Of a stretch of 64,000 nt of DNA, positions 23,845 to 61,653 are shown piece after piece. Each line of letters begins with the position of its first letter. Positions within the stretch are counted from its first letter, which is position 1. Source of the stretch: Candidatus Gottesmanbacteria bacterium (GTDB lineage Bacteria; Patescibacteriota; Microgenomatia; UBA10105; UBA927); assembly GCA_023245355.1 (NCBI GenBank), contig JAHFKN010000003.1:57368-121367 (forward strand), read 5' to 3'. The notes under the pieces were generated by a model. It was not told the DNA's origin, ran no database searches, and saw nothing but the letters and a program-made list of their open reading frames with translations. A program made the translations under genes and the position numbers.

Positions 23845-24795
23845 TTAAGGTAAAGGCGAAAGATAGGCCTCGGCAAACTGTTTCCACGAAACAGATTTTT
23901 TCCCTTCCAGCTGAACCTGGTCAATTGCCAGGATGTTATGGTCCAGGTGGAGCTCGAGAATTTTGAGCCGTAAGGGTTCCGTATTGTGTTGTGCGTGTAT
24001 TATCCTGGTCCATACTCCCGGCCACGGGTGTAGTGCGCGGTATTTCCGTTCTATCCTTTCGGCATCAGCGCCGGAGGACATGGCTGCAGCAATTGCCTCC
24101 CATGGTTCGAAACCGTCTTCCCGTGTAAATTTCCGTGCGTATTTGGGCTTTTCGCTTCCTATGTGCGAAACAGGACGGGTTGCTTTGAGTTTTCCCTGAA
24201 TAACGACAGGTAATATGCCGGCAAGCAGATCCGCACCTATGGCAAAAAGTTTTGTCCGGAGCGGGTCACTCGTGTCTTTTGGGGTGATCGGAATTTTTTC
24301 CTGGGCCAGGATCAGGCCCTGATCAAATGTCTCCGACAATGTAACGACCGAAACTCCCGTCTGATGGTCTCCTTCCATAATTGCCCACGGCACCGGATCG
24401 GCTCCTCTCCAATAGGGAAGAATGCTCGGGTGGACATTTATGCCGCCGAATTTAGCATCCCGGATTGTATTCCAGGGAATTTTAATACCGTAGGACGCAG
24501 ACACTAACAGGTCCGCCTGTACGGGTTGCAGCGTATCGATCACCTGCTGTTCGTTTCTATACAGCCATGGTTTTTCGGGGTTACTTTCAAATGTCAGGAC
24601 GGGAATCGTGTGTTTTTTGGCCCACAGCTCTACCGGGGTGGCCGTGACGGTGTGATTTCTGCCAATGGGTTTCGGGGGCTGGGTAACTACAGCAGCGACC
24701 GTGCAGCCATTGACAGTCATGAGTTTTTCCAGCACGAGAACGGAATCCGTCGTGGAACCGAAAAAAATGATGGTTGTAGGATGATTAGTCTTCAT
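23845..24795 (-). CDS. fmt: Methionyl-tRNA formyltransferase
   Basis: IIFFGSTTDS N-terminus, SYGIKIP, HPSILPYWRGADPV (formyl-transferase SLLP motif region). Lies downstream of def. Start taken at MKTNHPTTIIFFG. Confidence 0.75.
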   Translation of the reverse strand: MKTNHPTTIIFFGSTTDSVLVLEKLMTVNGCTVAAVVTQPPKPIGRNHTVTATPVELWAKKHTIPVLTFESNPEKPWLYRNEQQVIDTLQPVQADLLVSASYGIKIPWNTIRDAKFGGINVHPSILPYWRGADPVPWAIMEGDHQTGVSVVTLSETFDQGLILAQEKIPITPKDTSDPLRTKLFAIGADLLAGILPVVIQGKLKATRPVSHIGSEKPKYARKFTREDGFEPWEAIAAAMSSGADAERIERKYRALHPWPGVWTRIIHAQHNTEPLRLKILELHLDHNILAIDQVQLEGKKSVSWKQFAEAYLSPLP

Positions 24796-24986
24796 TGTCT
24801 GATTTTGTGACTCCGGTTCCTTTGATCGGGTTGCCGCCGTGCAACGCCTGTTGAATTTGTCTGTCAACTTCTTTCACGAGTGCGGTCATAGGTTTTCTGG
24901 TTTTTGCCTGCACCGTTAACATATCCGATTTTTTCTTGAACAGATGCGAGATGAATGATGTTTCTTTACTTTGTAAGTCATTCATA

Positions 24987-25532
24987 TTACGGAAGCGGTA
25001 TTTCTTCCAGAAGTTCGTCGCCCTTTTCGTCTGTTGAGACCTGGAATAGTTTTTCCTGCTGTTCCAATACCCGTTGAGTAAAAAGAATACCGTTTACATG
25101 GTCCGTTTCGTGCTGGATGATCGTAGCCAGGAATCCTGAAAATTCTTCCTGATGTACGCAACCCGTTGCGTCCTGATACCGCAGGGTAAGCGAGGATGTG
25201 CGGCGGACTTTACCCCAGACGTTCGGTATGGACAGGCACCCTTCGAGTTTATTGCCGCGTTCAGGAACGCCGTCTGTCACTTCGTCGGATTTTTTGACAA
25301 TTTCCGGATTGATAAACACGCGGATTTTTGCCCGCTGGTTGGGTTTTGTGAGAAAAAGACGGATACTGACGCCAACCTGCGTTGCGGCTAAGCCGACACC
25401 TTTCGGGTTGACGGTTGCAAGCAGGGTTTCTTCCATTTCCGAGATGAGTTTTGCAAGTTTACCGTCAAATACGGTGACCGGGGATGCCGGGGTAGTGAGA
25501 ACAGAATTGGGAACATGCACGATAGGCTTCAT
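24987..25532 (-). CDS. def: Peptide deformylase
   Basis: GVGLAATQVG (motif 1), EGCLSIP (motif 2), QHETDHVNG (motif 3, HExxH). Confidence 0.8.
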   Translation of the reverse strand: MKPIVHVPNSVLTTPASPVTVFDGKLAKLISEMEETLLATVNPKGVGLAATQVGVSIRLFLTKPNQRAKIRVFINPEIVKKSDEVTDGVPERGNKLEGCLSIPNVWGKVRRTSSLTLRYQDATGCVHQEEFSGFLATIIQHETDHVNGILFTQRVLEQQEKLFQVSTDEKGDELLEEIPLP

Positions 25533-27778
25533 TTGACTTTCTCCGAAAAGTCCTTGTCATTGGGGTCGATATTCGTAAGATATTCCCTAAGGATTGCATT
25601 GGCTTCCGCAGGCTTTTTGGTTTCGGTGTAAAACACCCACAGCGCGTAATATGCGTCCCGGTATCCGGGTTTGAGCGATTTGGCTTTTTGTAGGTTTACG
25701 ATTGCCTGCGCTGAATCTCCTTCGCGACCCAACAGAATTGCAAGGTTATAGTAAATCTTCGGATCATTGGGAGAGAGCGACACGGCATATTTGAGTGTCT
25801 CTATGGCCTTTGCATTAAATGTCGGTTCAAGGGAGGAAAGCGTGTAGTATATTTTTGTCCGTGTTTTATAAAAATTGACATTTTTCGGAGACGTATTGAT
25901 TGCAGTAACACTTTCGCCGACAGAAAGAGCAGCCAGCTGGGCTGCCTGCGTGGCATTACTGCCTTCAAATGCGGCAACGGCAAGGGTGGCGTATGCGCTT
26001 CCGAGTTCATCGTGATAGGCAGGTTCGTTTTTATTGAGGCTGATAGCCTGAACAAATGCGGGGATTGCCTGACCGAATGAGCCGGACCGGACGAGGCGGT
26101 ATCCTTTGGCATACAGCGTATCTGCATACCAGAATGCCCCGATCCTCATGAGTAAGGAGATGCTGCCGATACAAAGAACCCAGATACTCCACCCCGGAAG
26201 ATTCATAGATTTTACATTGGTTCTGAGTTCCCGGCCGGAAAGCGCGACGCTGAATGCGGGGAACAGGAAAAGCACCAGTTGCATGACGACGACGGAAAAT
26301 CCGAAAAAGTTGGTAATCAGTACCGAAAACCATCCGGCAAACAATGCAGCCTGAAGAACGAATGTTGCAGCATCGTTCGATGCGGCGGTATTGTTGTTCT
26401 GCACCAGTTGTTTTCTGACAATTTTTATAAACCACCAGATGTAGGACGCGAGGAACAAAAGATAGCTACCGAGGCCGAATACCCCTGTAGTTGCCAGATA
26501 GTTGAGGTATTCGTTGTGCGCTTTATTATACAGGAAGTCCCATTCGCTTGTCTGGTTGTGGCCGACCGGCCGGTATTGGTAAAACGCGAATGCAAATGTT
26601 TCCGTACCGGTTCCGATGAGTTTTGTTTTCACTGTGCTTGCCCACGCGTTGATTGCCGCCTGCCACACGTATTTCCGGATCACGCCGGATTCCGTTCCTC
26701 CTACTTCAAGCGCCGGTCCCGTAGTTGCAGAGGGTGTCGCTTCTGCAGGTGCCGCCTGCTGCTTCGTGGTCAATGTGCGTACGGCGTTTTTCCACCCGGT
26801 GAATGTCACAAACCTGTCGATTGCCGGTGTTCCCGTGCCGTTTGCAAATACGATAAGAGCAAAAAGCAGGTGAAGGACAGCAACAGGTTTTACCTCCGGG
26901 AGGCGTTTAAGATGATCAAATGTTTTAACTCCGGTACCCGGTATAAGTGTAAGACACCAAAATACCGCGTCAGCGATGATAAATCCCAACAAGCCGGATC
27001 TGCTTCTGGTAAATAGCAGGACAGTAAACAGAAGGGTCGGCAGTACTGCATAGGCTGACATGAAAAACCAGCGGGTGCCGGTAGCTTTGTCCTGCTGCAT
27101 CCGTATGAGTCCAAGCGCCCAGGTGACGGGAATAAACGCGATGAGGTAGGCTGCCAGCCAGTTCGGTTGTCCGAGGGTGGAAAATACGCGGTTTTGGACG
27201 TCCTGTACCCATAGGTGTTTATCGATGCCCAGTCGCTCCAGCACGCCATAGAATGCGACTAAGGCAGCGGTAACCACCGCAGCCTTGAGAAGCGTAGGCA
27301 CAGACGTAAGGCGTAATGTGAGCACCGGCTTCTGTTTCAGCTTATTTTTTGCTGATTTGGCGGTTATCGGGGCCGTATCCCGTATTTCTTCCCTGTGTAT
27401 AAAGAGGTCTGCATTGTTTATGAATGCGTAGTAGAGCAGGACATACGAAATCACCGACCACAGCCCTCCGTTAAATCTGCTGTAGTACCCGAGCCAGCTT
27501 ACATGCGGATCAATCGAGAAAAGTGTGCTGACAAGCTGGGAAGTAGCAAAAAGCAGGATAGGGATGTCCAGGGGGGTGCGTTGTAAGCGGATTTCGCGCT
27601 GCCTGATCATTTTGACAAGCCAGCCCGTTGCCACAATCACGGTGATTCCGTACACCATCATCATTTTGTTGTACTCAAAGAGTTCGTAGTTCCAGGGGGT
27701 AAGAAGCAGGGGAACGAGGCTAAAAAGCAGGTAAAATCCTATTTTTATGCACGTGTTGCACAAGCTTATAAGCTTCAT
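25529..27778 (-). CDS. O-antigen ligase/Wzy-like polytopic membrane protein with C-terminal TPR repeats
   Basis: About 12 TM helices with a large periplasmic loop, then at least 4 TPR-like repeats (AYHDELGSAYATL..., KIYYNLAILLGREGDSAQA...). Confidence 0.5.
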   Translation of the reverse strand: MKLISLCNTCIKIGFYLLFSLVPLLLTPWNYELFEYNKMMMVYGITVIVATGWLVKMIRQREIRLQRTPLDIPILLFATSQLVSTLFSIDPHVSWLGYYSRFNGGLWSVISYVLLYYAFINNADLFIHREEIRDTAPITAKSAKNKLKQKPVLTLRLTSVPTLLKAAVVTAALVAFYGVLERLGIDKHLWVQDVQNRVFSTLGQPNWLAAYLIAFIPVTWALGLIRMQQDKATGTRWFFMSAYAVLPTLLFTVLLFTRSRSGLLGFIIADAVFWCLTLIPGTGVKTFDHLKRLPEVKPVAVLHLLFALIVFANGTGTPAIDRFVTFTGWKNAVRTLTTKQQAAPAEATPSATTGPALEVGGTESGVIRKYVWQAAINAWASTVKTKLIGTGTETFAFAFYQYRPVGHNQTSEWDFLYNKAHNEYLNYLATTGVFGLGSYLLFLASYIWWFIKIVRKQLVQNNNTAASNDAATFVLQAALFAGWFSVLITNFFGFSVVVMQLVLFLFPAFSVALSGRELRTNVKSMNLPGWSIWVLCIGSISLLMRIGAFWYADTLYAKGYRLVRSGSFGQAIPAFVQAISLNKNEPAYHDELGSAYATLAVAAFEGSNATQAAQLAALSVGESVTAINTSPKNVNFYKTRTKIYYTLSSLEPTFNAKAIETLKYAVSLSPNDPKIYYNLAILLGREGDSAQAIVNLQKAKSLKPGYRDAYYALWVFYTETKKPAEANAILREYLTNIDPNDKDFSEKVK

Positions 27779-28997
27779 GGCGGTAAGTATATCACGATTT
27801 TACGAAAAAATTGATCCGGCAAAGTATTTTTTCCGGGGCAGAAGTAGGGCTAATTAGCTTGACAAACATGGCCTTTTTATGTTATAGGATATGCTCCTGT
27901 CTATGAAAATTCAATATATCGCCGTTCCGCTGTCCTGCCGGCGAATCACGCGAGCCCTTAGCTGGGCTTCTTTGCGTTGGGTGCTTTGCGAGAGAATTCT
28001 TATTCTCGAGCTTAGCAGCCGAACGATCCCGCTGAAGCGCTCTTTGCGCCGTGTACGGATAGTACTGAAAAGGCGCAAAGCAAGCTTGTGCGGGAGGGTT
28101 GAGGGTAATTTTTGAGGTTGGTAAAGCTGGTTGAGGCTATTTGAGGCTGGCCCGCTGGGCGGGAGGACATGGAAAAACGTTGAAATATTAGGTTGATATT
28201 TGAGGCTAGGATTGTTGACTGGCTAGTTAACGATCCCGATCAGATCGGGAGAGTTTACGAGCCATCAATCCCGCTTCGCGGGACGGGAATTGAGATTCGA
28301 AGTTCGGGTAGCTAAGGAAAACATTGAAATAACAGGCTTGATGTTGAGGCTGGGATTGCGGGCTTTTGGACAGGGAGCCCGCAATTCTGGCCTAAATGAG
28401 GCTGGACCTTGCCCCTCCCTGTGAAGCAGGGCGAGGGTGAGGGTATTGTTCTGAGCTTAAGATGTGCCTGAGCAGCCTCCAATTGCGGAGGTATGTTTCC
28501 GGGTGTGTCTTTGAGCGCACATTAACAACTGAACGAAGGAAATAGATGAAGAGTTATAGATGAGTGGAGAGTGATTACGATTGAGTGAGCAACGCATGAT
28601 ACATGCTGCAATGCTGCTCATTTTTGGCAGGAAGTTTTTTACGTGCGTAGTTTCACAATAGAACTGAACAGAGGGAAGAATTGAAGCATTCTTTCTTGTG
28701 GTCAGTTCTATTGGGGAATTTAATGTAATGTAACAATTACCATCGATTGTTTTTTAATCGATATCGACTTTGGGGGAAATTTTAAGTCTAGTACTATCCC
28801 AACTCTGTATGTGTTTTTTTATAGACACTACAACCAAGTCACGCGGAATAAACACCGCAAACTCAAGATGTAATCCCGCAAGGGTCACATCTTAAACAAT
28901 TCCGTGTCAGCTCACGTTGGCATCGGAACTACCGCACAACCAATTCAGACAATCTTTACAGAACGTCTGTTGGAATCCAATTTATAGGAGCCAGATC
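27779..28997. other. 1.2-kb ORF-free, highly structured intergenic region (candidate origin of an integrated element and/or large ncRNA)
   Basis: No convincing ORF. Contains nested inverted repeats, hairpins cccgctgggcggg (28151..28163), cccgatcagatcggg (28235..28249), cccgcttcgcggg (28270..28282), gcgggc..gcccgc (28358..28382), and an AT-rich tract (about 28680..28870) with the palindromes aatcgatatcgatt and agaactgaac..ggtcagttct. Confidence 0.5.
28112..28403 (+). repeat. Iteron-like direct repeats: TTGAGGCT(R)G in six copies, plus a duplicated 45-nt segment
   Basis: TTGAGG(C/T)T at 28112, 28131, 28141, 28200, 28344 and 28397. The 45-nt units ggaaaaacgttgaaatattaggttgatatttgaggctaggattg (28171..28215) and ggaaaacattgaaataacaggcttgatgttgaggctgggattg (28316..28358) are about 80% identical. 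Confidence 0.55.
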
Positions 28998-29213
28998 ATG
29001 GCGAAGCAAGGTAAGAAAGGCAAGCAAGACGAGCAAGTTGTTGAAGTACCCGCCGAAGAGCACGTGGAAGGTGATAAACCGACCAGACGACCCAAAAAGG
29101 TCCCTGCTCAAGGCAAGCGTTTCCGCAGCGGTCCCAGAGAACATCGGGAAAGCCGGAGAAGCGGATTTCATCACTTGCTGAATGAAGGCGAGGAGGACGA
29201 ACAACTCTCGTAG
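28998..29213 (+). CDS. Small highly charged, probably disordered protein
   Basis: AGGAG SD 8 nt upstream of the ATG. 71 aa rich in K/E/R/Q. First gene of the GC-rich plus-strand block. Confidence 0.4.
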   Translation: MAKQGKKGKQDEQVVEVPAEEHVEGDKPTRRPKKVPAQGKRFRSGPREHRESRRSGFHHLLNEGEEDEQLS

Positions 29214-29234
29214 AGATACTTCATTTGCTTGTTA

Positions 29235-29262
29235 CCAGTCGGTCACTTATCGGTGACCGACT
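29235..29262 (+). terminator. Perfect 10-bp stem hairpin after the small charged-protein gene
   Basis: agtcggtcac-ttatc-ggtgaccgact followed by ttctcc. The T-run is weak, so it may be an attenuator or processing site. Confidence 0.3.
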
Positions 29263-29578
29263 TTCTCCTATTCCAGGCCGGTGAAATCACCGCGTCTGTT
29301 ACTTCCGGGACACTGACCGTGTACCCAAACCCATTCGGAATTCGTCCGGGTGGTCATGCCAAGAAAGGAGCGTGAGTTACAGAAGGTACCAAATCGTTTT
29401 TCTGATCGTGAAGTACGTTTAGAAAAGAAGTAGGTTGGATCTTAAGTATGTCTTTGTCATTCCGAAGCCTGGCTTTTGGCTGGGTCCTGGAAAAGTCGGA
29501 TGACGTTTGATTGACAGAACAGGTGAAGATTTGCTTCGACAATCAATTCGATTATGTACAAAAACAGGAGTGTGTATC

Positions 29579-29992
29579 ATGTCAGCAACTCGAAATGACC
29601 CGAAGAAAAAAGACGACAAGAAAGGTACGTCTCTGGCAAAATTGCTCGCAGGCAGTGAAGAGCCCGCGAAAAACGGTAATCACGACACTGGTAGCGGCGG
29701 CGGAAATCTCGTCGGCGCAATCGGCGCAGGGCTCGGTAAGTTTTTCGGCAATCTGCTTCCCGCAGGTTTTAAGAGCGCCAAACTCAAGGACACCGCTACG
29801 CAGGTTATCAAGACCCCGCTGGGCGGCAGTATCGTCGGCACCTATGTGTCCGAAATCGAAATTGAAGGCGCACCCGATATCATCAAGGCGATTGAAGAAG
29901 CCAAGGAAGCCACTGAGCAAGCGGCTATACTGGCTGACAAGGAAGTCGCCATGGCGAAAATCGAAGCCGGTAACGCAGACAAGGAGGAATAA
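29579..29992 (+). CDS. Hypothetical protein with glycine-zipper segment
   Basis: AGGAG SD. GNLVGAIGAGLGKFFGNLLPAG glycine zipper, acidic coiled-coil C-terminus. Confidence 0.45.
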   Translation: MSATRNDPKKKDDKKGTSLAKLLAGSEEPAKNGNHDTGSGGGNLVGAIGAGLGKFFGNLLPAGFKSAKLKDTATQVIKTPLGGSIVGTYVSEIEIEGAPDIIKAIEEAKEATEQAAILADKEVAMAKIEAGNADKEE

Positions 29993-29995
29993 ATA

Positions 29996-30751
29996 ATGAC
30001 CACCGAAACCACACAGCCGACGCGGCTGGATAAGATCCGTCCATTCATGGCATGGGTCGTCCTTCCCGCGATTCTGGCGATGGTGGCAGGAGTGTTCGTG
30101 AATTTCAAAGTGCCATGGCTCCGTCCCGGTGCCGTGGCCCTTTTGCTCCTGTCTGCCGTGCCGTTATGGCCCGTGATTACGGCTAAGCCCTCGAAAAAGG
30201 TTAACTGGGCTGGTTTCTTCTGGCTGGCTGTGCATGTCGTGCTGTTTGCGACTGCCGGTTATCTGGAATGGGACCATCTCAAGTGGCCCATCAGCCCGTG
30301 GCTTGGCTTTGGATCAATGGTTGTCATCTGGATTGGCGTCGTCGTCGCTATCTCGCAAATCAAAGTGCGAAGCGAAGGCGATTCACCGTCAGTCCGTCAT
30401 GTGACGCCAACCGTCTCTGATGGCGCTGTTAAGGTAACGAATAAGCTCGCCGCTAAACTCGGACTTCCCATCGGCAAAGAAGCCGAAGTCGATATGGGGA
30501 AATTTCTCCAACGTATGGAGATGGCGGCAGAGAACGAACGTCGGACACTCGACCTGGAAGAACGCAAGGAAGTACGCGCGATTCTTGAGTTTGGTCTCAA
30601 GCACCAGCTGATTGCCCCTGAGGAAATTAGTGCGCGAGTCCGGGCATTAGCAGGTATTACCAGTGTCGAAGAAGTTGTCGCTCCGCGTTCACCGCGCCGT
30701 CAACGCGATACCGGTTACGAAATTCCGCAACGATCGAAACGGAGGTTGTGA
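29996..30751 (+). CDS. Integral membrane protein (4 TM) with C-terminal coiled-coil/charged domain
   Basis: GGAGG SD. Overlaps the next gene by 4 nt (ATGA). Confidence 0.5.
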   Translation: MTTETTQPTRLDKIRPFMAWVVLPAILAMVAGVFVNFKVPWLRPGAVALLLLSAVPLWPVITAKPSKKVNWAGFFWLAVHVVLFATAGYLEWDHLKWPISPWLGFGSMVVIWIGVVVAISQIKVRSEGDSPSVRHVTPTVSDGAVKVTNKLAAKLGLPIGKEAEVDMGKFLQRMEMAAENERRTLDLEERKEVRAILEFGLKHQLIAPEEISARVRALAGITSVEEVVAPRSPRRQRDTGYEIPQRSKRRL

Positions 30752-31530
30752 TGGACAGTGGAACGATCACCACGATTGTGTTTGTCCTTTTGGGTTTGGG
30801 CGTGTTGGGCTTGGGACTTGCAATTCCGGGCAACTACAACGTTATCCGACCCAACGAGCGCGGTTTTACCTATGCGTTCGGTAAAGTAACGAGTCTCAGA
30901 GGCCCCGGCCCTACACTGACCTGGCCCTGGGAGAATCTGATTATCCGTCCCATCAACCAGCAAAAGGTTGATATTGAGTTGTCCCGCCTGACAACCGGCG
31001 CGCCTGATCCGATGGAGTTTGACCTGACCATGAGCGCGCTGATCCATGTCGCAGATGTGGAAAAGTCCGTCTTCGGGTTTCAGGGCAACTTCAAGCAGGC
31101 GCTGGACGATTTGGCACAAGGAGCGATGCAAGCCGCTTTGGTCCGTGTTGGTGGTAACGCACTGCTCGACAATACGCTCCCGCGTGTTCTTGAGCATGTA
31201 AGCGAAACCATCACCAAGCATGTGACTGAGAAATGGGGCATTGCCGTTGATGAGCTGGTTATTTCGGACATTGGACTGCCCCAAGTGCTCATTGACGCTA
31301 CTGCAATCCGTGCCAAGTCCAAGGCAGAAGCCGAGGCTCTTACGAACCTGTCCAAGGCAGAAGCCGAAAACTACGAGCGCGAACTCAAAGCGCAGGGACG
31401 TAACTATCGTTTCCATCAGCTCATGGACACCCTGGAGAAGATGGCCAAAGGCGGCGCATTCCGTGCTGTCGGCGACCTCAACTCCGTGCTGGGGATGGTT
31501 CTGGTGGATAACAAGGAGGATGCGGCATGA
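30748..31530 (+). CDS. SPFH/band-7 (stomatin/prohibitin/flotillin-like) domain protein
   Basis: N-terminal TM, then VIRPNERGFTYAFGKVTSLRGPGPTLTWPWENLIIRPINQQKVDIE typical of the SPFH fold. C-terminal coiled-coil (EAEALTNLSKAEAENYERELKAQ). Confidence 0.65.
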   Translation: MMDSGTITTIVFVLLGLGVLGLGLAIPGNYNVIRPNERGFTYAFGKVTSLRGPGPTLTWPWENLIIRPINQQKVDIELSRLTTGAPDPMEFDLTMSALIHVADVEKSVFGFQGNFKQALDDLAQGAMQAALVRVGGNALLDNTLPRVLEHVSETITKHVTEKWGIAVDELVISDIGLPQVLIDATAIRAKSKAEAEALTNLSKAEAENYERELKAQGRNYRFHQLMDTLEKMAKGGAFRAVGDLNSVLGMVLVDNKEDAA

Positions 31531-32057
31531 ACGCATGGTTTAACTATGCATTGGAACGGTTGTACGCCTGGCTTTTGCTGGCGCTTCAGCAGTTCCTGTC
31601 TCTCATCAGCATCTGCAAGAAATTGTGGTGGGGCGGGCTTATCTTAGCCGTCTACATCCTTATCGAGCAGGTGTTCGATGCGCCGGCGCTGTTTACTCTG
31701 ACAGCGGAAACGTACCAGTACCGAAAAGGCATTCTGACGCTTCTCATGTTGGCGTGGGTCTTGTTACTCACAAGCCATGTCCTCGTGCGTCAGGAATATG
31801 TCGTTGGTGACGAAGATAAGGCTATCGAGACGTTCAGTGGCAACGCGAATTGGATGAGCATTGTGTTCGCTCTCATCGCGACGCTGTTTTTCTGGATTCT
31901 CGGGACGCCGAAACTGACCCTCGTCATCCTCGGACCGTTACAGATCGTGCCTTTCTTTCTCGGAACTGACTACAAGGAGCAGGCTGACATGGAGTTGCCT
32001 CGGTTGATTAACCTCACCTTGGTCGCGCTGTCTGTCTGGATCGTTGCGTTCCAATAA
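31527..32057 (+). CDS. Integral membrane protein (4 TM)
   Basis: Translationally coupled (ATGA) to the SPFH gene. 176 aa. Confidence 0.5.
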   Translation: MNAWFNYALERLYAWLLLALQQFLSLISICKKLWWGGLILAVYILIEQVFDAPALFTLTAETYQYRKGILTLLMLAWVLLLTSHVLVRQEYVVGDEDKAIETFSGNANWMSIVFALIATLFFWILGTPKLTLVILGPLQIVPFFLGTDYKEQADMELPRLINLTLVALSVWIVAFQ

Positions 32058-32070
32058 AAAGGAGGATGAG

Positions 32071-32916
32071 ATGAAAATTCTCATCAAGTACGGTTGGATC
32101 ATCCTCCTTATGGGGGTGATATCTGCCTGCAGCACAGCGACTCCGATGAGTCCCGTGGAAGTGCAGATGACGAGCATGGCGGCTCAAGCACAGGCGTGTG
32201 CCACGCTTCAAGCGATCGGTACACCGTACCCTTGTAACCCGCCTACTGCGACTCTGCAACCCACGAGCACGCCGACACCGATGCCGTCACCGACTGCAAC
32301 CCCTTACACAGGGTGGAAACAGTTCACGGAAGATGGTTCGTATGTTGGTGATATGCCTCCCGGTTTCGAGCCGCCATGCGAAGGCGTCGTCGGGTGCCCC
32401 GGTAAGTTGTACATCCAGTATGTCAACGGGGTACCTGTTTCCGGTGATCAAGGCGGCACGACAGGCACACCTGGCTATTGGCCCTGGCTACTAGTTGGGA
32501 TCCCAGTCGCGCTCGCGTTTTTCCTGATTATCGGCATCGGCGTTCATGGCGCAACAGCACCGCAACGCGCGCTGGCTGAAAGCATCAAAATGACCGCAAA
32601 GGTTCAGGCAAAACTGCTCGAAATGTCCGGCTTGAAACAGCCCGCTTTACAAGCGCCAAAGGACGTACGGGCAGGTGACCTATGGGTTTACCTCCAGCGG
32701 TTCATTCAGGAATGTCATCCGGATCAGCGGTTTGAGACAACGATGCGGCATCACATGCGCGCATATCATCGTAAAGATGACTTGATCCCTCTGGAAACGA
32801 TGGCTGGTTGGGTACATGCGTTTGACCAAACCAACGAAACCAACGTGCTTGAGGCGTTCACAGCGTTTGCTGACCGGGCTGACTTCAATCATCAATTAGT
32901 AGAGAGGAGTTCGTGA
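32071..32916 (+). CDS. Lipoprotein with Thr/Pro-rich linker, a C-terminal TM segment and cytoplasmic tail
   Basis: AGGAGG SD, lipobox-like LMGVISAC, PTSTPTPMPSPTATP linker, a TM segment (LLVGIPVALAFFLIIGIGV). Start taken at the internal Met after the SD. Confidence 0.5.
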   Translation: MKILIKYGWIILLMGVISACSTATPMSPVEVQMTSMAAQAQACATLQAIGTPYPCNPPTATLQPTSTPTPMPSPTATPYTGWKQFTEDGSYVGDMPPGFEPPCEGVVGCPGKLYIQYVNGVPVSGDQGGTTGTPGYWPWLLVGIPVALAFFLIIGIGVHGATAPQRALAESIKMTAKVQAKLLEMSGLKQPALQAPKDVRAGDLWVYLQRFIQECHPDQRFETTMRHHMRAYHRKDDLIPLETMAGWVHAFDQTNETNVLEAFTAFADRADFNHQLVERSS

Positions 32917-33131
32917 TGGAAAAGATCGTGATCATTCTGATCATCGTCGGTGTGGTAATGCTTGCCGGCAGTAACATGGCGCAATCCGTTGCCATTGACC
33001 TGTCAGCCGGCCCCCATGCCGAAGGTGAAGCACAAGTGCTTGCGGCTCAGTCCGAAGGCATTCAGGCGCAGAACCAAACCGATCAGGCAGCAGCCGAGCA
33101 AGCGCTGACTGATAAGACTCAGGTCGACTAA
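32913..33131 (+). CDS. Small single-TM protein
   Basis: GGAG SD, 72 aa, overlaps the upstream stop. Confidence 0.4.
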   Translation: MMEKIVIILIIVGVVMLAGSNMAQSVAIDLSAGPHAEGEAQVLAAQSEGIQAQNQTDQAAAEQALTDKTQVD

Positions 33132-33176
33132 GCTACACAAGCCAGCCGTGTCTTCAAGTGGAAGGCGCTTCAGTGG

Positions 33177-33566
33177 GTGCTGGGTATCGTCGGTGGGTTC
33201 TCGTTGGCGCTCGTCCTCATCATGGTGGCAGTAAATGCCTCAGCGTTCATGGGTCTCATCAACTTCCGTATGGCGGTGATGCCCGTAGGCGTTCAACGAG
33301 GCGATGACATCATGTGGGTGTTGCCGCTCATGCCGAATATCGGGTTTCTGACGCATCAAGGCGCGCCGGGAGTCGTGACCAAGCTGACTGCTCATGATCA
33401 TCCTCGCCTCAGCGAGTCGCATGATTCTGTCGGTCTGGCAATGGCAAACGCACTTCGCGAAAAGGCACGCTCAGCGTCCTATGGACAGCAAGGCGACGGT
33501 GGTTTTGCCAATGCTATGCATACGCTCTCGGACGTACTCAATGGGCGACCCCGACTCGGTTCCTAG
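33177..33566 (+). CDS. Membrane protein, hypothetical
   Basis: 129 aa, 2-3 TM. Last gene of the GC-rich block. Confidence 0.4.
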   Translation: MLGIVGGFSLALVLIMVAVNASAFMGLINFRMAVMPVGVQRGDDIMWVLPLMPNIGFLTHQGAPGVVTKLTAHDHPRLSESHDSVGLAMANALREKARSASYGQQGDGGFANAMHTLSDVLNGRPRLGS

Positions 33567-34219
33567 GTGGTGCCACATGCGCCCCCTCAAAAAACCTTAT
33601 AAGCTGCCCAACAAGGACAGCCCTTCGTTCAGTAAAACAATCTATTCCGCTCAACGGCGGCCGTTTGTTTCCCTCATGGGAGCAGACGTCCGCCGACGCG
33701 GGAATCCTAGCCGATCAACCGGCACCATACCTTCGACCTGCGAAAGCGGGAAGAGAAGATTGGTGCCGGCAGGCTTGGGATGCATGGGAAAGAGAGGTGT
33801 GGCGTATCGCCACTTTATCAGCATCTGCTGAACTCTCTTTCCCGTCTCTTTCCGATTTTCAACCGTTGGTTGAAGACCGAAATGAGAGAATAAACACTAT
33901 TTGATTTCTGCCCTATGAAAGAAATGTTACAAACATTACATTCTGCTGCACTCATACGTATCGTTTCGCGGTACGGCGTTCTGGGAGAACAGGAAGCAGT
34001 CACGGTTACGAATTTGCCCAGACGGGGAGTGCGGTCTTCGGTGATCGGCAGAACGGATATCAGGACGGAGCCGACGCCTGATTTGCTCACTGGGTTATTT
34101 GTCGTTACCTCGAGATCAAGAGGTAAATATACGTTGCAAAATCAATCTACCGGCATAGAGTTATCAGGCGTGCCGCGAAAGAGTATACGGAAGATTCTGG
34201 ATTGGGAATAAGGCGGGCG

Positions 34220-34591
34220 TTATTTAATTTTAATTCCGAACCAGCCTGCAATCACTCCCAGTGCGCTTCGTGCAGCATGTTGTCTGTCTGTTTCACTCAT
34301 GTCGTCTCCCGGTGCGACCTGAATTTTTAACCGTTGTCTGTGAGTACGTTCTCCTTTGGGCTCATAAAAAGCTCCGGCTACAGCTTTGCCCCGTGTCACA
34401 AGCCCCATTTCCCCCTCACCGTCGTCAGCGAGCGCGTGTTTTAATTCATGGTGGGCGCCCCGTGCAGCTTCTTCATGCGGTACCCCGCGGGCTTTGGACA
34501 GACGGCCGACGTGCGCTGCTGCGCGCGCCTTGTCGCCTTTTGTTTTCAGGCTTTTATCTGTGGTTAATAAATACTCATCTTCTTCAATCAT
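34220..34591 (-). CDS. Small HExxH-motif protein (possible minimal zinc metallopeptidase-like, ImmA/IrrE-like motif)
   Basis: GAHHELKHALAD contains HELKH. 123 aa. The assignment is tentative. Confidence 0.35.
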   Translation of the reverse strand: MIEEDEYLLTTDKSLKTKGDKARAAAHVGRLSKARGVPHEEAARGAHHELKHALADDGEGEMGLVTRGKAVAGAFYEPKGERTHRQRLKIQVAPGDDMSETDRQHAARSALGVIAGWFGIKIK

Positions 34592-34662
34592 AAAAAAATT
34601 ATATCAAGAATCGCGCTTTTTTTACAGGTATTAGTGTTGCGGTGGTATAATTACAGGCTGTT

Positions 34663-34950
34663 ATGCCAATGAACCCGGAATTGAAAAAAGCCCTGTGGTG
34701 GATGGCACCCATTAACTTCGACGGAACATTCTGGGGTGCTACGTTCCGCTCGGTAGAAACGGTTGCCGCCGGTATCGGTTCGATATTGCTTCTCCACACG
34801 GTAGGAGCCGATTGCAGCGGTCCTATCGCCATAGGCACGCTTCTCATCATGGGAGGGCAATTTGCCGGAGTGCCCAGGCACAACCGGGAACACCGCTCAG
34901 CCTTACGTAAATTCTGGAGTATCCGGCCTGATCCGCCCGATGAAGATTAA
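34663..34950 (+). CDS. Small membrane protein
   Basis: Preceded by TTACAG-N18-TATAAT (34626..34655). 95 aa, 2 TM. Confidence 0.3.
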   Translation: MPMNPELKKALWWMAPINFDGTFWGATFRSVETVAAGIGSILLLHTVGADCSGPIAIGTLLIMGGQFAGVPRHNREHRSALRKFWSIRPDPPDED

Positions 34951-35269
34951 CGGAGAATGAGTATAGTTTTTGTTCAATCACAATCCCGCTTTCTGATGTT
35001 CGTTGCCGTACAAACCGGCATTTGATAGTATATGGTCGCGGTTTCGGGTTTCCTGGTTACCATAGCGCGGTAATTCTAGGGAACTTTTTTTGTACCTTAA
35101 CAAACGGGAGAATAAGCAGTTTGTAATTATTGAGAGTCCTATGGAGAGAACCATATGTAGGTTCTCTGTGTCGGTCTATCAACAATCAACACGTAAGGAG
35201 GCACTTCGGAAAATTATAGTAACCCACTATTTCTATTCATGTTTTTCATATAGACCCTTTGGAGGAGTC

Positions 35270-35530
35270 ATGACCAATCCACTGCTCGAAAAGTTTCGTA
35301 AATCCTTGAGTAAAATCAACTGGAAAAAACTCGGGACAATCGTCTTTTACAGCGCCTTTGGTCTTATGTGCGCTGGCATCTTGTTTCTGTTCGTCGGGCT
35401 GGTTATCGTCGGTCACCCGTCGGCACCTGAGTATGAAAATCCAATCAACGCGCTGATCACGTTGGGAATTTTCCTGGGCGCCGGGATAACCATTTACACC
35501 TTCCGGGGTGGGGGAGGAAAAAAGAGGTAA
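35270..35530 (+). CDS. Small 2-TM membrane protein
   Basis: Internal start MTNPLLEKF of ORF 35090..35530. Hydrophobic core, GGGGKKR tail. Confidence 0.3.
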   Translation: MTNPLLEKFRKSLSKINWKKLGTIVFYSAFGLMCAGILFLFVGLVIVGHPSAPEYENPINALITLGIFLGAGITIYTFRGGGGKKR

Positions 35531-35741
35531 AAGCCACCTCGCGTGGAGAACACAAGGGCAAGTCATCTTGCTTGCCCTTTCTTGTTTTATTTCTGCGTAT
35601 GCAGAAATGCAATGATATAGTTCCGACGCACGGTCTTTTGCGCTTTTTTGTTTCTTTTTTTGTCCTTTGCTGCTTGTTCTCCCGTTTTTCTTTTCCCCGG
35701 AAATACCCAATCCCGATAATTTGTTATAATGCCGATATTCT

Positions 35742-36611
35742 ATGGTAGAAGTATCACCAGAGCGTTTCAGGCTATTGGGTACCCCGCCGCAAAGAGTCAA
35801 AGAAATTCCGGTACACGAAGTATCCAAGCCTGCGGAAGTGGCAGTATCGCTGCGTCCTACCGTTGCCATGGACAAGCATTCCCCGGAGGCGATAAAGGCC
35901 AAAAAGATTGCAAAAAAACCGCTGCCTGCGCTTTGGGGCAACAGGGCAGAATTTTTGCCGGAAACAGCAGCATTTTTAAAAGGGTGCGGGATAGATCCTG
36001 ATTTGGTAAATCCCATTCCGTTGGGGGAAGGGCTTACGAATGTCGTGTTTTCCTACGCATCGCCGGACGGGAGCCAAAAGGTGATAAAAATCGCACGGCA
36101 GGCACGGAAGGGATTTATGAGTGCCGGTTACCATCACGATGCGGAAAATATCGCACTGGTCAAAAAGTTTTTCGGTTCGTATGCCGTGCCGACGGAGCTT
36201 CGGCAGGACCAGGCAACGGGCAAATATCTCATGTTGCAGGATGCAATCACCGGCACACCGGTGACGAACAAAACAGAATCAGCATCCGTCCGCGCGCAGC
36301 TTGTGGATCTGGCCCGCTTAAACCGGGAAATGATGCGGCAGACAGGATACAGCATGGATTTTATCGGAGTACCCGGCATGTTTACCTGGTTTCGGCATCA
36401 GTTCCGGCAGATCATTACCCGGAAAAGCGAGTTCCAATTATCAAACATCTTCATGGACCAGTCCGGCAATCTCAAAATCATCGATGAGGGGCTGCTCCGG
36501 TTCGGCAAAGGGTTATCGCTGAAGCAGCGGTTGGGTTCCTGGTCCGGCTTTTTGGCAAACCGTCTTATTATGCGCCTGTACTTCGGAGTCGATTTACGCC
36601 CCAAAGCGTAA
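35742..36611 (+). CDS. Kinase-like protein (APH/ChoK-like fold, tentative)
   Basis: NIFMDQSGNLKIIDEG resembles the catalytic loop/DFG region of phosphotransferase-fold kinases. Preferred over the overlapping antisense ORF 35246..36016. Confidence 0.35.
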   Translation: MVEVSPERFRLLGTPPQRVKEIPVHEVSKPAEVAVSLRPTVAMDKHSPEAIKAKKIAKKPLPALWGNRAEFLPETAAFLKGCGIDPDLVNPIPLGEGLTNVVFSYASPDGSQKVIKIARQARKGFMSAGYHHDAENIALVKKFFGSYAVPTELRQDQATGKYLMLQDAITGTPVTNKTESASVRAQLVDLARLNREMMRQTGYSMDFIGVPGMFTWFRHQFRQIITRKSEFQLSNIFMDQSGNLKIIDEGLLRFGKGLSLKQRLGSWSGFLANRLIMRLYFGVDLRPKA

Positions 36612-36863
36612 TTTGCTATAATCCTCTTCTATGGAAAATCAGATCAGCAAAAATATGGCCCGCAGAGCGTGGAATTTTTTGCGGGAAAGCGGGCAGATAT
36701 TGTTTGGTGTATCCAGATCAGGACATGCCGATACCGTAAGACACGTAAGCCCTGATATGGTCGAGTGCGGACAGCAAACGTATCCGGTTCGCAGTTTGCC
36801 GGGTCACGTACGGGAAATTCTTCGGGATTCGCGGGAACGGTTTTTGCAATACTGGCGCTGATA

Positions 36864-37427
36864 CTAAAACGGTATGTCGTCCGTCGGTAGTTGTGCTTTT
36901 CTTCTGGCTGCTTCTTCTTTTTGAAACGCCTCGGCACGTTCTTCCATAAGAGCAAGCAGCTCGTACTCTCTTCCTACATTAGACTGGAACCCACCACGTG
37001 ATAATTTTTGGTATGGGCTCATTTTTCCCTCGGATTTTCCGTCGATGTGTCCCCGTGAATGCCTGCCATGACGGGCAGAGCGTAGGCTTCGGCGTTCATG
37101 TTCGCGCGGAAGAAGGGTACCAACGACATCGTGCGTGAGTTCGCGATGAGGCCGCTCATGTTTTCGGGCACGGTAGGGAATTGCCCTCGTATCCTGTGAG
37201 TTTTCGCTTCGCGTCACCAAAATTTCTCCCCGTCTGGTTTGCATTGCTTTCCCAAGTAACGTATCGGCAATATTTCTGGCAAATGTTCTTCCCAAACTCA
37301 GTACGTCAGTCCACACTTCATCGTGGGTTAGATTATCTATTCCGACCTCATTTCCGTGTTCATCAAATGTCCGTTGATCAACGGAGGTATCTGGCCGCAG
37401 GTATTTTCGTTCAGGAGCACCTTTCAT
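36864..37427 (-). CDS. Hypothetical protein (Arg/His-rich low-complexity centre)
   Basis: 187-aa ORF. No recognisable domain. Coding status uncertain. Confidence 0.2.
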   Translation of the reverse strand: MKGAPERKYLRPDTSVDQRTFDEHGNEVGIDNLTHDEVWTDVLSLGRTFARNIADTLLGKAMQTRRGEILVTRSENSQDTRAIPYRARKHERPHRELTHDVVGTLLPREHERRSLRSARHGRHSRGHIDGKSEGKMSPYQKLSRGGFQSNVGREYELLALMEERAEAFQKEEAARRKAQLPTDDIPF

Positions 37428-37492
37428 ACCTATTATTATATCCCAGGAAAGCCAGTATGACGCGTTTTCCGATGTGGTAGAATGACTTCATC

Positions 37493-38556: not shown

Positions 38557-39123
38557 ATGCGACTTGCCTCATTCATTTCCCAGCTCACCGAACCTATGGT
38601 TTTGGTCACGGCACTTGTTGTGTCGGGCGCCTGGCAGCGCGGTTTACGGGGAATCCCGTTTGTTTCATTCGTGATGTATGTCGGTCTCTTTTTTTTGGCG
38701 TCACTCGGACTGCGTATCTTTGCGGTACGCAGACTCAAAACGAACTGGGATATATCCGACCGGGAAAAACGGGTGAAATCACTGGTGCCGTTTGTGGGAA
38801 TTTGTGCCGTATTTTTCTTGTGTATGCTCTTCTGGCGTAACGGCGGACTTATACAATTCGGGATGACACTTATTCTTTGGATGGTGGGATTTGTTCTGAT
38901 TACCCTGCGGACAAAAATATCCGGCCATCTTGCCATTCTCACCCTGACTTTGGGATACGCCGCTTCGTGGTACGGGTACATGGTTCTTCCGGCATTTGGC
39001 ATTCTGCCGTTTGTCGCCTGGTCGCGGTTGGTTCTTAAGCGGCATACGATGATAGAAGTAATCGGGGGCATTATGTATTCACTTGCGTTTCTCATGCTCA
39101 TCCGTTTTGCGGGGTGGGCGTAG
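38557..39123 (+). CDS. Polytopic membrane protein between mreB and PBP2 (MreD-position; weak PAP2-like motifs)
   Basis: 188 aa, 5-6 TM. KISGHLAI and SRLVLKRHTMIEV loosely resemble PAP2 motifs 2 and 3. Occupies the place of mreC/mreD. Confidence 0.3.
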   Translation: MRLASFISQLTEPMVLVTALVVSGAWQRGLRGIPFVSFVMYVGLFFLASLGLRIFAVRRLKTNWDISDREKRVKSLVPFVGICAVFFLCMLFWRNGGLIQFGMTLILWMVGFVLITLRTKISGHLAILTLTLGYAASWYGYMVLPAFGILPFVAWSRLVLKRHTMIEVIGGIMYSLAFLMLIRFAGWA

Positions 39124-41009: not shown

Positions 41010-41028
41010 GCCTTGATATAATGCCATC

Positions 41029-42399: not shown

Positions 42400-43565
42400 A
42401 TATTTTAGTCATTACCGCAACATATCCGCCGAGTGCTAACGGGGTTGCCGTGTCGACAAAGCGTACGGTGACGGCGCTGAGGAAATTAGGGCATAGGGTG
42501 GTGGTGTACGGGCCGAAGCGTTCAGGAATACCTGAAGAACAGGATTATATCGCGGCCCCGACTATCAGGATTCCGCTGCTGGGGATATCCGATTATCCGA
42601 TTGCGATTCCGCATCCCGTAGCTGTATTGTGCGCGCTATTGCCGGATATCCGATGGGATATTATTCATGTACATCATCCGGTTATTGCCGGCCCGTTTGC
42701 AGTCCGCATGGGTAAAAAACTCGGCGTCCCCGTCGTATTTACCTATCACACACGGTATGACCAATATATCGAACATTTCCTGGGGGCACCGCTGTATTTC
42801 CGGCGGTGGTTATATCGATGGCTGTATGAAGGCGGTCTGGTGAGTATCATACGGTCGTTTGACGGTGTTATTGCAACGACCCGGTGGCTCAAAACGATGC
42901 TCACTAAAACCATACCCGGTCTCCGGGTGTATTACGCGTCCACCGCAGGTCTGACAAAATCCTTTTTCGTACGGCGTTCCAAGCAAACACTCCGCCGTAC
43001 GCTCGGGTTATCGGAAGCGGAACCGGTGTTTTTGAGTGTTTCCCGTTTGTCCAAAGAAAAACGAACCGATATTTTACTGCGCGGTTTTTTGCACTGGGCA
43101 GATACGCATGATCAGGGGATTCTCGTCATGGTCGGCGACGGGGGTAACAGATCATATCTGGAATCCCTCTCGCGCGCGTCGGTTCATCATGCGCGCGTGC
43201 GTTTCGTCGGGAAAATTCTGAATGATGATTTGCCGCAGTGGTATAGCTGTGCCGATATATTTTTGTACAGTTCAATTACCGACACGATCGGCATAAATAT
43301 TCTCGAAGCCATGTCAGCCGGTTTGCCGGTAGTCGCGCCCGATCATCTGACCACGCGGGAAATTATAGTTCCCGGGGCCAACGGGCAGTTGTATAAAGGA
43401 AACGAGTCCGGCATGGCAAAGGCAATAGATACCGCATTACGCTACAGGAACAGGCTTGCCCGCGGTGCGTTCCACACTGCAAAAGGCTATGATGTCATGA
43501 TTACAATCAGACAATTATTGGGTATTTATGAAACACTCATCCGCCAATACAAACGTCATACATAG
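42396..43565 (+). CDS. Glycosyltransferase family 4 (GT-B)
   Basis: ILEAMSAGLPVVAPD (E-x7-E region) and N-terminal ITATYPPSANGVAV typical of GT4. Confidence 0.65.
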   Translation: MNILVITATYPPSANGVAVSTKRTVTALRKLGHRVVVYGPKRSGIPEEQDYIAAPTIRIPLLGISDYPIAIPHPVAVLCALLPDIRWDIIHVHHPVIAGPFAVRMGKKLGVPVVFTYHTRYDQYIEHFLGAPLYFRRWLYRWLYEGGLVSIIRSFDGVIATTRWLKTMLTKTIPGLRVYYASTAGLTKSFFVRRSKQTLRRTLGLSEAEPVFLSVSRLSKEKRTDILLRGFLHWADTHDQGILVMVGDGGNRSYLESLSRASVHHARVRFVGKILNDDLPQWYSCADIFLYSSITDTIGINILEAMSAGLPVVAPDHLTTREIIVPGANGQLYKGNESGMAKAIDTALRYRNRLARGAFHTAKGYDVMITIRQLLGIYETLIRQYKRHT

Positions 43566-45404: not shown

Positions 45405-45406
45405 CT

Positions 45407-57034: not shown

Positions 57035-58544
<1,510 letters not shown>

Positions 58545-61555: not shown

Positions 61556-61556
61556 G

Positions 61557-61628: not shown

Positions 61629-61653
61629 ATGGATATAAACATGAGTCTTTTAG

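Follow-up and report, generated by a model that had tools for sequence, protein, structure and literature searches.

A clade-specific chromosomal SPFH operon with distinctive Shine-Dalgarno usage and two candidate RNA families in Patescibacteria

The DNA analyzed here, which we call the window, is a stretch of 64,000 nucleotides from Candidatus Gottesmanbacteria bacterium (GenBank assembly GCA_023245355.1, contig JAHFKN010000003.1, positions 57,368 to 121,367 of the forward strand). Our subject is a block of plus-strand genes at 28998-33566, built around a gene for an SPFH/Band-7 protein, which a first-pass annotation made from the letters alone had taken for a probable horizontally acquired element. 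The window is a fragment of a Patescibacteria (candidate phyla radiation, CPR) chromosome, with a 16S rRNA gene and six tRNAs aboard, together with envelope and housekeeping genes (fmt, def, a gene for a Wzy_C/TPR protein, here wzy, and mreB, PBP2, dprA, and topA); the nearest named relatives of its MreB are Microgenomates-type metagenome-assembled genomes, at 62-68% identity. Relatives were found by exact-protein and profile look-ups, and at least eight lineages were recovered (L001, L002/3, L084/85, L086-89, L090-95, L096-98, and L100-102), among which L084 is closest to the window (~95% identical overall), L086-89 is GCA_048499835.1 (a 1.23-Mb contig), and L100-102 is GCA_023245335.1 (1.22 Mb). 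The block occurs in three allelic types, represented by the window, L096, and L100. We hold with moderate confidence that it is a lineage-specific chromosomal operon with a leadered mRNA, in which an SPFH scaffold would be encoded together with co-evolving membrane clients, between two putative regulatory RNAs.

The first gene of the block, g1 (28998-29213, +), is a candidate open reading frame (ORF) for a small, highly charged (hyper-basic) protein of 71 residues, with a conserved Shine-Dalgarno (SD) site and ATGGC start. It lacks an excess of third-codon-position substitutions (11/10/13 at the first, second, and third positions), the ORFs at this place in L086 and L090 encode unrelated proteins, and a terminator hairpin followed by a 365-nt leader sets it off from the remaining genes; g1 may be a leader ORF or else a small ORF that evolves quickly. 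The next gene, g2 (29579-29992, +), encodes 137 residues with a basic N terminus, a glycine-zipper segment (GAIGAGLGKFFG), and an acidic helical C terminus; its SD duplex has a free energy (dG) of -9.3, and its substitutions are in third-position excess (22/10/47). The product of g3 (29996-30751, +; substitutions 50/34/89) has four transmembrane (TM) segments and a C-terminal domain of ~130 residues with an Arg-rich tail, predicted as mostly helical in a low-confidence AlphaFold2 model. Only six homologues of g3 were found among 5.8 billion clusters, and the protein has no match in PDB, Pfam, or the phage and plasmid collections.

At the center lies g4 (30751-31530, +), whose product of 259 residues has an SPFH domain, preceded by a putative TM anchor at the N terminus and followed by a putatively helical C-terminal region. 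The SPFH/Band-7 assignment of the first-pass annotation is confirmed by Pfam Band_7 (PF01145; E=8e-19; 68.8 bits, cut-off 23.6; 174/176 profile positions covered), and the L100 allele still reaches 40.8 bits. The best sequence matches in PDB are QmcA (8z5g, a 26-chain entry; 5e-6) and then stomatins; inspection of the sequence shows residues 8-25 (TIVFVLLGLGVLGLGLAI) to be hydrophobic and residues ~180-235 to be rich in Ala, Glu, and Lys. The neighboring gene g5 (31527-32057, +; substitutions 14/5/33) encodes a polytopic membrane protein of 176 residues. It is followed by g6 (32071-32916, +; substitutions 42/34/90), whose 281-residue product carries a signal of lipoprotein type (..LMGVISAC) and a Thr/Pro linker; its outer domain contains Cys and by sequence inspection faces outward, and one TM segment and an inner domain of ~110 residues are also present. 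The protein is ~40% identical to the L096- and L100-type alleles.

The last gene, g7g8 (32916-33566, +), encodes a single two-TM protein of 216 residues, the most conserved of the operon (91-95% identity across type A, compared with 92-96% for MreB), for which just 24 representatives were found among 1.84 billion proteins. It had been counted as two small membrane proteins, which brought the genes of the block to eight. The halves (32916-33131 and 33177-33566) belong to one gene, cut here by an in-frame GAA to TAA change at 33129-33131 that is private to the window; both show third-position substitution excess, and GAA and the gene are intact in L001, L002, and L084. The block thus has seven genes. 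Distant members of the g7g8 family (P0029, P0035) lie on contigs too short to display gene context. The genes are tightly joined, as had been noted, though the ATGA overlaps reported throughout come down to one, between g4 and g5; g3/g4 and g6/g7 share TGATG overlaps, and gaps of 3 nt and 13 nt separate g2/g3 and g5/g6.

Protein family scans with Pfam, NCBIfam, and PHROG covered the proteins in 28998-37427, and PADLOC was applied to 10 proteins at E<=0.1. Among the block proteins only the SPFH protein was recognized; g2 and g5 had no match in any of the four collections, g6 had neither a family nor a PDB match, and in the divergent L096 and L100 alleles Band_7 alone scored above the Pfam threshold. 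PDB profile and sequence searches with g7g8, g3, g6, and g12 gave nothing under E=0.4.

Translation signals set the block apart from the rest of the window. The 3' end of the window's 16S rRNA (...GAUCACCUCCUUUCU) carries the canonical anti-SD, and SD motifs (AGGAG, GGAGG, or AGGAGG) lie 5-8 nt before all seven block starts, with duplex dG between -6.5 and -11.6. Values of -9 or below are reached at 6/7 block starts versus 2/52 starts elsewhere (Fisher p=4e-6; Mann-Whitney U p=1.5e-5), so that the contrast described in the first-pass annotation, with strong sites in the block and mostly none outside it, is borne out. It arises because most other genes look leaderless: a TATAAT box (at least 5/6 match) ends 5-11 nt before the start of 19 of 51 non-block genes (37%, versus a background of 3.4%; p=2e-15), for example at 34591, 34663, 35742, 37427, 37493, 38557, 41029, 53709, 56052, 16805, and 17133, and before none of the seven block genes. 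The same pattern is seen upstream of genes in L091, L096, and L100. The genome appears to use mostly leaderless mRNAs, and the block is the sole clearly leadered, SD-driven, putatively polycistronic unit in this window. The idea that SD sites merely mark operon-internal genes was rejected, given that other overlapping genes lack strong ones: the other tightly packed or overlapping same-strand runs (38557-48531 and 54271-55985) are mostly without a strong SD, the best being -8.6 at 42396. What looks like foreign SD usage would here mark a leadered polycistronic operon amid leaderless genes, and calls of genomic islands from SD usage or composition in such genomes need a synteny check.

The composition of the block is also distinct. 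Its GC content is 53.9% versus 48.9% in the rest of the window, a shift of ~5 points that is real and smaller than the ~12 points (high-50s versus mid-40s) estimated before; in a sliding-window analysis it is the highest-GC 4.6-kb stretch in the 64 kb, ~2.2 standard deviations over the mean. Part of this could come from the proteins themselves, since GC at first codon positions (GC1) is 0.607 in the block versus 0.542 elsewhere, as Ala/Gly/Val-rich proteins would give, and one could hold that the shift is a trivial by-product of membrane-protein amino acids, or chance, and the block nothing special. We assign this view a negligible probability. GC at third codon positions (GC3) is raised as well (0.612 versus 0.530; Mann-Whitney p=1e-4), being at least 0.575 in 7/7 block genes versus 8/51 other genes (p=1e-4), whereas hydrophobic genes elsewhere in the window (e.g., 7106-7975, 38557-39123, and 51278-52054) have ordinary GC and GC3. 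The block also holds the window maximum of tetranucleotide distance (at 29001, z=3.6), and amino-acid content has no bearing on the SD contrast. The explanation by amino-acid content or chance is thus already refuted by GC3, by tetranucleotides, and by the SD statistics. Across related lineages, GC is mostly offset in the block by +4 to +9 points, irrespective of genome GC, and types A and B retain both this excess and the SD sites.

Every related lineage that was recovered (at least eight, two genomes of ~1.2 Mb among them) has the block at this locus, with the same genes on either side. The order is everywhere M50-(L28)-fmt-def-wzy, then the small ORF, g2, g3, the SPFH gene, g5, g6, and g7g8, and farther on a gene for a 289-residue protein and mreB-pbp2; a look for the block next to different neighbors turned up the same flanks wherever they were visible. 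With respect to the wider lineage, a region of 9.7 kb (27779-37492) is inserted between the start of the wzy/TPR gene (25529-27778, -) and the start of mreB (37493, +). The distance from wzy to mreB is 9.7-9.9 kb in the window, L084, and L001, versus 56-490 bp in ~18 outgroup Patescibacteria (MreB 57-68% identical), which argues that the region is old and specific to the clade. In the nearest outgroups, L005 and L006 (MreB ~80% identical), unrelated genes stand between wzy and mreB: a PIN/antitoxin-like pair and other genes upstream of mreB in L006, and a different membrane protein in L005. The 9.7-kb region would thus have arisen long ago, by insertion or as an innovation, at a spacer of variable content, and have become fixed in a single shallow clade, within which MreB identity is 92% or more.

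These observations bear directly on the possibility that the block is a recently acquired island, i.e., a cryptic plasmid, a prophage remnant, or a defense island of known type, with foreign GC and SD usage that have not yet ameliorated. Such an origin would account for the block being the window's outlier in GC, GC3, and tetranucleotides, for SD usage unlike that of its neighbors, and for outgroup genomes that lack the block at this site; moreover, operons of SPFH genes and their partners are known for lateral transfer (PMC2636767). The first-pass annotation, which favored this origin, had itself named conserved synteny as evidence against it, and we find the same locus and flanks in every related lineage, down to an SPFH identity of ~22%, with most lineages, however deeply diverged, keeping the GC offset. 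Scans of the proteins in 28998-37427 with Pfam, PHROG, and NCBIfam revealed no integrase, transposase, replication, or structural gene; no tRNA target lies near the block (the nearest tRNA is ~10 kb away), and no att direct or terminal inverted repeats of at least 15 nt were found flanking the block or the 9.7-kb insert. PADLOC-DB had no family for the 10 proteins, and the single PHROG match was to a generic SPFH family. In tblastn searches with g3 and g7g8, the phage (INPHARED) and plasmid (PLSDB) collections gave no match. Scanned with an SPFH alignment, the GTDB species representatives and IMG/VR showed no relatives, the patterns being probably too specific for divergent alleles, and a metagenome scan returned only the close relative L084/L085. 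An adjoining origin-like region had also been proposed. We rejected it, as GC skew is monotonic across the window with no inflection and 27779-28998 contains no DnaA-box cluster. There is therefore no positive evidence for any of these origins, be it cryptic plasmid, prophage remnant, recent island, or known defense system, and conserved synteny largely refutes a recent arrival, which we regard as very improbable. Of the claim that the block is foreign, there remain its distinct composition and translation signals, its insertion relative to the wider lineage, and the movement of its alleles, described below. Elsewhere in the window, the 365-residue gene at 3054-4151 (+), beside tRNA-Trp (4371-4442), has a GC content of 35% and a GC3 of 0.32 and is by far the most deviant single gene; on inspection its product resembles signal peptidase I, with the motifs SMMPTF and GDNRKNSNDSR, and a recent horizontal acquisition is more plausible for this gene than for the flagged block.

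Two conserved structured RNA elements border the genes from g2 to g7g8. The first is a 5' leader upstream of g2 (29274-29545, +; ~270 nt), made of several hairpins and a 110-nt irregular hairpin domain at 29427-29537. It is preceded by a terminator-type hairpin after g1 (29231-29257, +; GUCGGUCAC..GUGACCGAC, then UUUCU), which shows compensatory C-G to U-A changes in L002 and different yet paired sequences in L086, L090, and L096; RNAalifold recovers this hairpin followed by the multi-hairpin leader. The spacer between g1 and g2 is better conserved than the proteins; even in L096, whose SPFH protein is 28% identical, it keeps (near-)invariant blocks such as GGGACACUGACCGUGUACCC, AAGGAGCG, UGUCAUU..GAA, and AGUCGGAUGACG. 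In the leader alignment 95.7% of cells are paired versus 32-40% in slid controls, and 18 pairs have changed on both sides versus 0-5 in controls, a level reached by 0/500 shuffles; the fold itself has z=-2.1. A conserved fold with compensatory changes is thus found upstream of the same genes in many genomes (~7 independent lineages, which gives modest power). A model of the leader (R2) matches each type A and type B block locus and gives no match in L100. By inspection of the predicted structures, no obvious terminator or SD-sequestering helix lies beside the g2 SD.

The second element (33567-33905, +; ~340 nt, core at 33643-33782) begins right after the last stop codon of the operon. A structured non-coding stretch of 650 nt had been described here, of which 348 nt (33567-33914) are indeed strongly structured and non-coding, whereas 33915-34211 is a real gene for a protein of 98 residues. 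The minimum free energy of the element is -145.5 kcal/mol versus -101 +/- 5 for shuffled sequences (z=-8.2; minus strand z=-5.9), no codon-position pattern is seen, and G-U pairs favor the plus strand. Its invariant motifs are CCGCUCAACGGCGG, CCGCCGACGCGG, and a GAAA-capped hairpin, and 94.4% of cells are paired versus 32-48% in slid controls. A model (R1) built from types A and B, with L100 left out, finds the element at every block locus whose sequence extends over the site, among them L100 (82 bits), where a 9-bp helix has changed from CCGGCACCA/UGGUGCCGG to CUCGGCGAA/UUCGCCGAG, that is, by six compensatory pairs. Conservation statistics for both RNAs rest on ~7-9 independent sequences. Neither R1 nor R2 had a match in 80 outgroup loci (1.35 Mb). 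At the gathering threshold, Rfam 15 identified only the 16S rRNA and tRNAs in the window, and at E<=5 over 27779-29600 and 33500-35800 it gave only chance miRNA/sRNA matches. Two identical phage contigs (L105, L106) were considered as homologues of the 3' element and rejected, as they contain the first hairpin only (22.5 bits) and the second domain is missing; the invariant leader hairpin had no match in the viral scan. Judged from their sequences and predicted folds, the two elements are candidate new RNA families. To our knowledge, almost no regulatory RNA has been described so far in this phylum.

The persistence of these RNAs admits another explanation, in which both are functional partners of the SPFH scaffold and of basic-tailed membrane proteins (g3 with its Arg-rich tail, the hyper-basic g1) in a membrane ribonucleoprotein like that of OLE RNA. 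The RNAs are better conserved than most of the proteins (the 3' element in three operon types, the leader in two, A and B), and their occurrence strictly follows that of the operon; for an untranslated region (UTR), the 3' element has unusual stability, as its z of -8.2 indicates, and membrane-bound ribonucleoproteins with large structured RNAs are known (OLE). We nevertheless think this distinctly improbable: no RNA-binding domain was detected in the block proteins, the RNAs show no homology to OLE or to other Rfam families, L100 gave no match to the leader, and both RNAs sit where cis-acting UTR elements would, immediately 5' and 3' of the coding region. Should it be true, the block would be a clade-specific, second unrelated case of the OLE-type "membrane RNA" principle, in which proteins diversify and RNAs stay fixed.

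The proteins of the block vary independently of their surroundings. Lineages L090, L096, and L100 are equally distant from the window in the flanks (def 66-70%, wzy 54-55%, MreB ~92%), while SPFH identity to the window is 50%, 28%, and ~22%, and g7g8 identity 91%, ~51%, and ~38%, respectively; overall, operon proteins span from 97% to <25% identity between genomes with equally diverged flanks. The opposite case is L002, where g3 and g4 are 96-97% identical in amino acids against 63-74% in the flanks, and the nucleotide comparison with the window is a mosaic, with 91-97% identity across g3-g4 and 66-72% in the flanks. For g5 and g12 the closest relative is L001. Because block divergence is decoupled from flank divergence, these comparisons indicate that there are deep allelic types and that segments have been recently replaced by homologous recombination, as far as the alignments allow this to be read. 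Mobility specific to the block should not be read into the mosaic, given two further replacements in L084. There, fmt is 69% identical (23845-24867 in the window, 3495-4544 in L084) and the adjacent M50, def, and wzy are 95-98% identical, and g9, a gene downstream of the block, is swapped as well. Since both differ sharply in a genome otherwise ~95% identical, recombination seems general in these genomes, and the allelic types at a fixed locus offer a small, tractable case of recombination between ~30%-diverged Patescibacteria genomes.

The same variation could also reflect a variable envelope or conflict locus under diversifying selection (phage exclusion, membrane abortive infection, or contact of an episymbiont with its host), with allelic cassettes swapped between lineages and with the leader RNA, g7g8, and the 3' RNA serving as homology arms. 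The span of 97% to <25% identity at equal flank divergence, the 91-97% segments in a 66-72% background, the variable site upstream of mreB in L005 and L006, the g9 allele of 33-36% identity in ~95%-identical L084, and the outward-facing Cys-containing domain of g6 are all consistent with it. We consider it unlikely, if worth keeping in view: no known defense protein was matched, the replacement of fmt in L084 (69%, with its neighbors at 95%) makes recombination a property not specific to the block, and the most variable proteins (SPFH, g3, and g5) are not obviously surface-exposed.

Other features of the 9.7-kb region surround the block on both sides. Upstream, a conserved promoter-like site and a likewise conserved ~80-nt element (27850-27975, +) consist of TTGACA-17-TTATAGGAT, a hairpin CGCCG...CGGCG, and a terminator-like hairpin AGCCC..GGGCU followed by UCUUU. 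The element is kept in an alignment of 6-7 lineages, and a simple promoter/terminator scan, otherwise uninformative, has a terminator-like match at 27952-27969. For the unit at 27893-27975, the candidates are a small RNA and a tiny leaderless ORF (M-K-I-Q-Y-I-A-V-P-L-S-C-R-R...), the latter ending after 13 codons in L090. It is followed by a variable number of "UUGAGGCUGG" and hairpin modules (28097-28445, +), which add up to ~300 nt more in the window than in its relatives (indels in the alignment); the UUGAGGCUGG motif is SD-like (GAGG), and TGAGGCT occurs in five exact copies in 270 nt, plus variants, with a copy number that varies by lineage. The heptamer at the core of these modules recurs at 61393-61561 (+), as three copies of TGAGGCT at exact 81-nt spacing beside tRNA-Cys and tRNA-Ile (61556-61725, -).

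Downstream of the 3' element, the conserved gene for 98 residues (33915-34211, +; substitutions 26/10/48 and 12/3/29) has homologues in L001, L002, L084, L086, L091, and L096. The gene labeled g9 (34220-34591, -; substitutions 26/10/64) has a leaderless-type promoter (gatataat 8 nt before ATG) and encodes 123 residues with an HExxH motif, HELKH, that is invariant in five alleles and kept in the one that replaces it in L084 (13882-14205); the protein had no family match in Pfam or NCBIfam. A small hydrophobic protein of 95 residues (34663-34950, +), also with a leaderless-type promoter (ggtataat), occurs in all operon types (L096 50%, L100 59%). Next, an 18-nt inverted repeat (35102-35119/35670-35687, 94% complementary) brackets an SD-led gene, g11 (35270-35530), which was detected only in the window, L084, and L001, and not in L002, L086, L091, L096, and L100, whose sequences span the region; g11 may be a small inserted unit. 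The 289-residue protein encoded at 35742-36611 (+) is found in all operon-bearing lineages (43-93% identity) and has kinase-like motifs (GEGxxxxVF...VIKIA; NIxxD...IID), with only faint family matches (ABC1 atypical kinase, E=0.06, in 2/8 members; CTD kinase catalytic loop, E=0.7). At the far end of the window, the 16S rRNA gene (57035-58542) is followed in the remaining 5.4 kb not by a 23S rRNA gene but by an 827-residue ORF (58705-61188) and two opposite-strand tRNAs, and the rRNA genes appear unlinked in this genome.

We suggest that the block consists of one stomatin/QmcA-like, membrane-anchored SPFH scaffold (g4), tightly coupled to polytopic g3 and g5, with the lipoprotein-type bitopic g6, the very conserved two-TM g7g8, and the glycine-zipper g2 as further members. 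They would be translated from a single leadered polycistronic mRNA on which strong SD sites and stop/start overlaps initiate translation and presumably set the stoichiometry of the proteins. By analogy with QmcA, stomatin, and HflK/C, the SPFH protein would oligomerize on the membrane and organize or restrain g3, g5, g6, and g7g8, while the 5' leader and the 3' element may control transcription read-through, translation, or mRNA stability. The genes that diverge most in the operon are g3, g4, and g5, i.e., the SPFH gene and its neighbors, which would fit co-evolving contacts and points to physical partners open to testing. The 9.7-kb region would have entered the spacer between wzy and mreB in the ancestor of the clade and later diversified into deep allelic types, swapped between lineages by homologous recombination. 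The block would then look foreign owing to its expression architecture (leadered and SD-led amid leaderless genes) and to a preference for GC3-rich codons that most alleles retain. This overall picture is what our moderate confidence applies to; for any specific physiological role of the operon it is far lower.

Several points weigh against this interpretation. In L100 the block has no GC excess (48.7% versus 50.6%), its SD sites are weaker, and R2 does not match, so that the argument from an intrinsic expression architecture fails for some alleles; a persistent GC3 offset would be equally expected if alleles circulated from an unsampled, GC-richer donor pool. The TAA in g7g8 may be a nonsense allele, a population variant, or an assembly error, and the operon may be impaired in this genome. 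The terminator-like hairpin between g1 and the leader leaves the source of transcription of g2-g8 in doubt, and the operon boundaries, the promoter of g2-g8, and the inclusion of the 3' element in the mRNA are all inferred. The scaffold-client mechanism is an argument by analogy, no partner protein of g4 has a recognizable domain, and the AlphaFold2 models of g7g8 and g3 are unusable (predicted local distance difference test scores of 50 and 52).

Compared with classical genomic islands and hotspots, the block shares an atypical composition, presence in one clade and absence from ~18 outgroups between two conserved genes, and a spacer of variable content in the nearest outgroups. Unlike them, it has no integrase, tRNA, or att site, its position and gene order are fixed clade-wide, and it varies by allele replacement rather than by presence and absence. 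In this respect the claim of horizontal transfer dissolves, and what matters is the RNAs, the dichotomy of leaderless and SD-led genes, and the allelic types, for CPR biology and for specialists of SPFH proteins and bacterial RNAs.

SPFH scaffolds occur almost universally, and their clients and regulation are poorly known beyond a few model systems. HflK/HflC with FtsH and the flotillins (FloT/FloA) lend support to the general notion of an oligomer that encloses membrane and retains client membrane proteins, and g4 resembles them in its SPFH fold and in a putatively helical C-terminal region. It differs from HflK/C in scoring 17.3 bits against a cut-off of 159.4 (TIGR01933), in being a single SPFH gene rather than one of a paralogous pair, and in having no adjacent FtsH, and from flotillin in scoring 14.6 bits against a cut-off of 27 (PF15975). 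OLE RNA with OapA/B/C of Firmicutes is a membrane ribonucleoprotein containing a large structured RNA, and the block likewise has large conserved structured RNAs beside genes for small multi-pass membrane proteins. However, no match to Rfam, including OLE, and no OapA/B/C homologues were found, and the RNAs of the block abut the coding region like UTRs; a ribonucleoprotein role for them is pure conjecture.

In Bacillus subtilis, the pspA-ydjGHI operon (samGHI) encodes an SPFH protein, YdjI, which is reported to be recruited by two membrane proteins (bioRxiv 10.64898/2026.02.06.704340). The block is similar in its envelope-related setting and in that an SPFH protein is co-encoded with, and presumably acts through, dedicated small membrane proteins that belong to no other known family; it differs in that YdjI/SamI is described as cytosolic, whereas g4 has a putative TM anchor of its own, and in the absence of a PspA gene from the block. 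The two were compared by family scans alone, which gave no similarity. The closest counterparts are the prokaryotic stomatin-type operons of an SPFH gene with NfeD, such as E. coli qmcA-ybbJ and Pyrococcus PH1511-PH1510, which have been classified as SPFH1/SPFH2 and move laterally with their partners (Hinderhofer et al. 2009, PMC2636767). Like their SPFH proteins, g4 is a single, putatively N-terminally anchored protein of ~260 residues whose best solved relatives by sequence are QmcA (8z5g) and stomatins, and its translation is coupled to that of a neighboring multi-pass membrane protein. The block differs in having five partners rather than one, plus two conserved RNAs, and since the defining partner, NfeD (PF01957), was looked for and not matched by the block proteins of the window, L096, and L100 at E <= 0.05-0.1, i.e., in all three allelic types, it stands outside the stomatin-NfeD class, though it probably works in a similar way. 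In place of NfeD, this compact SPFH operon, restricted to one clade, has five orphan membrane proteins inherited along with it, and it is best described as a variation on the SPFH-operon theme, with novel partners and two candidate new RNA families.

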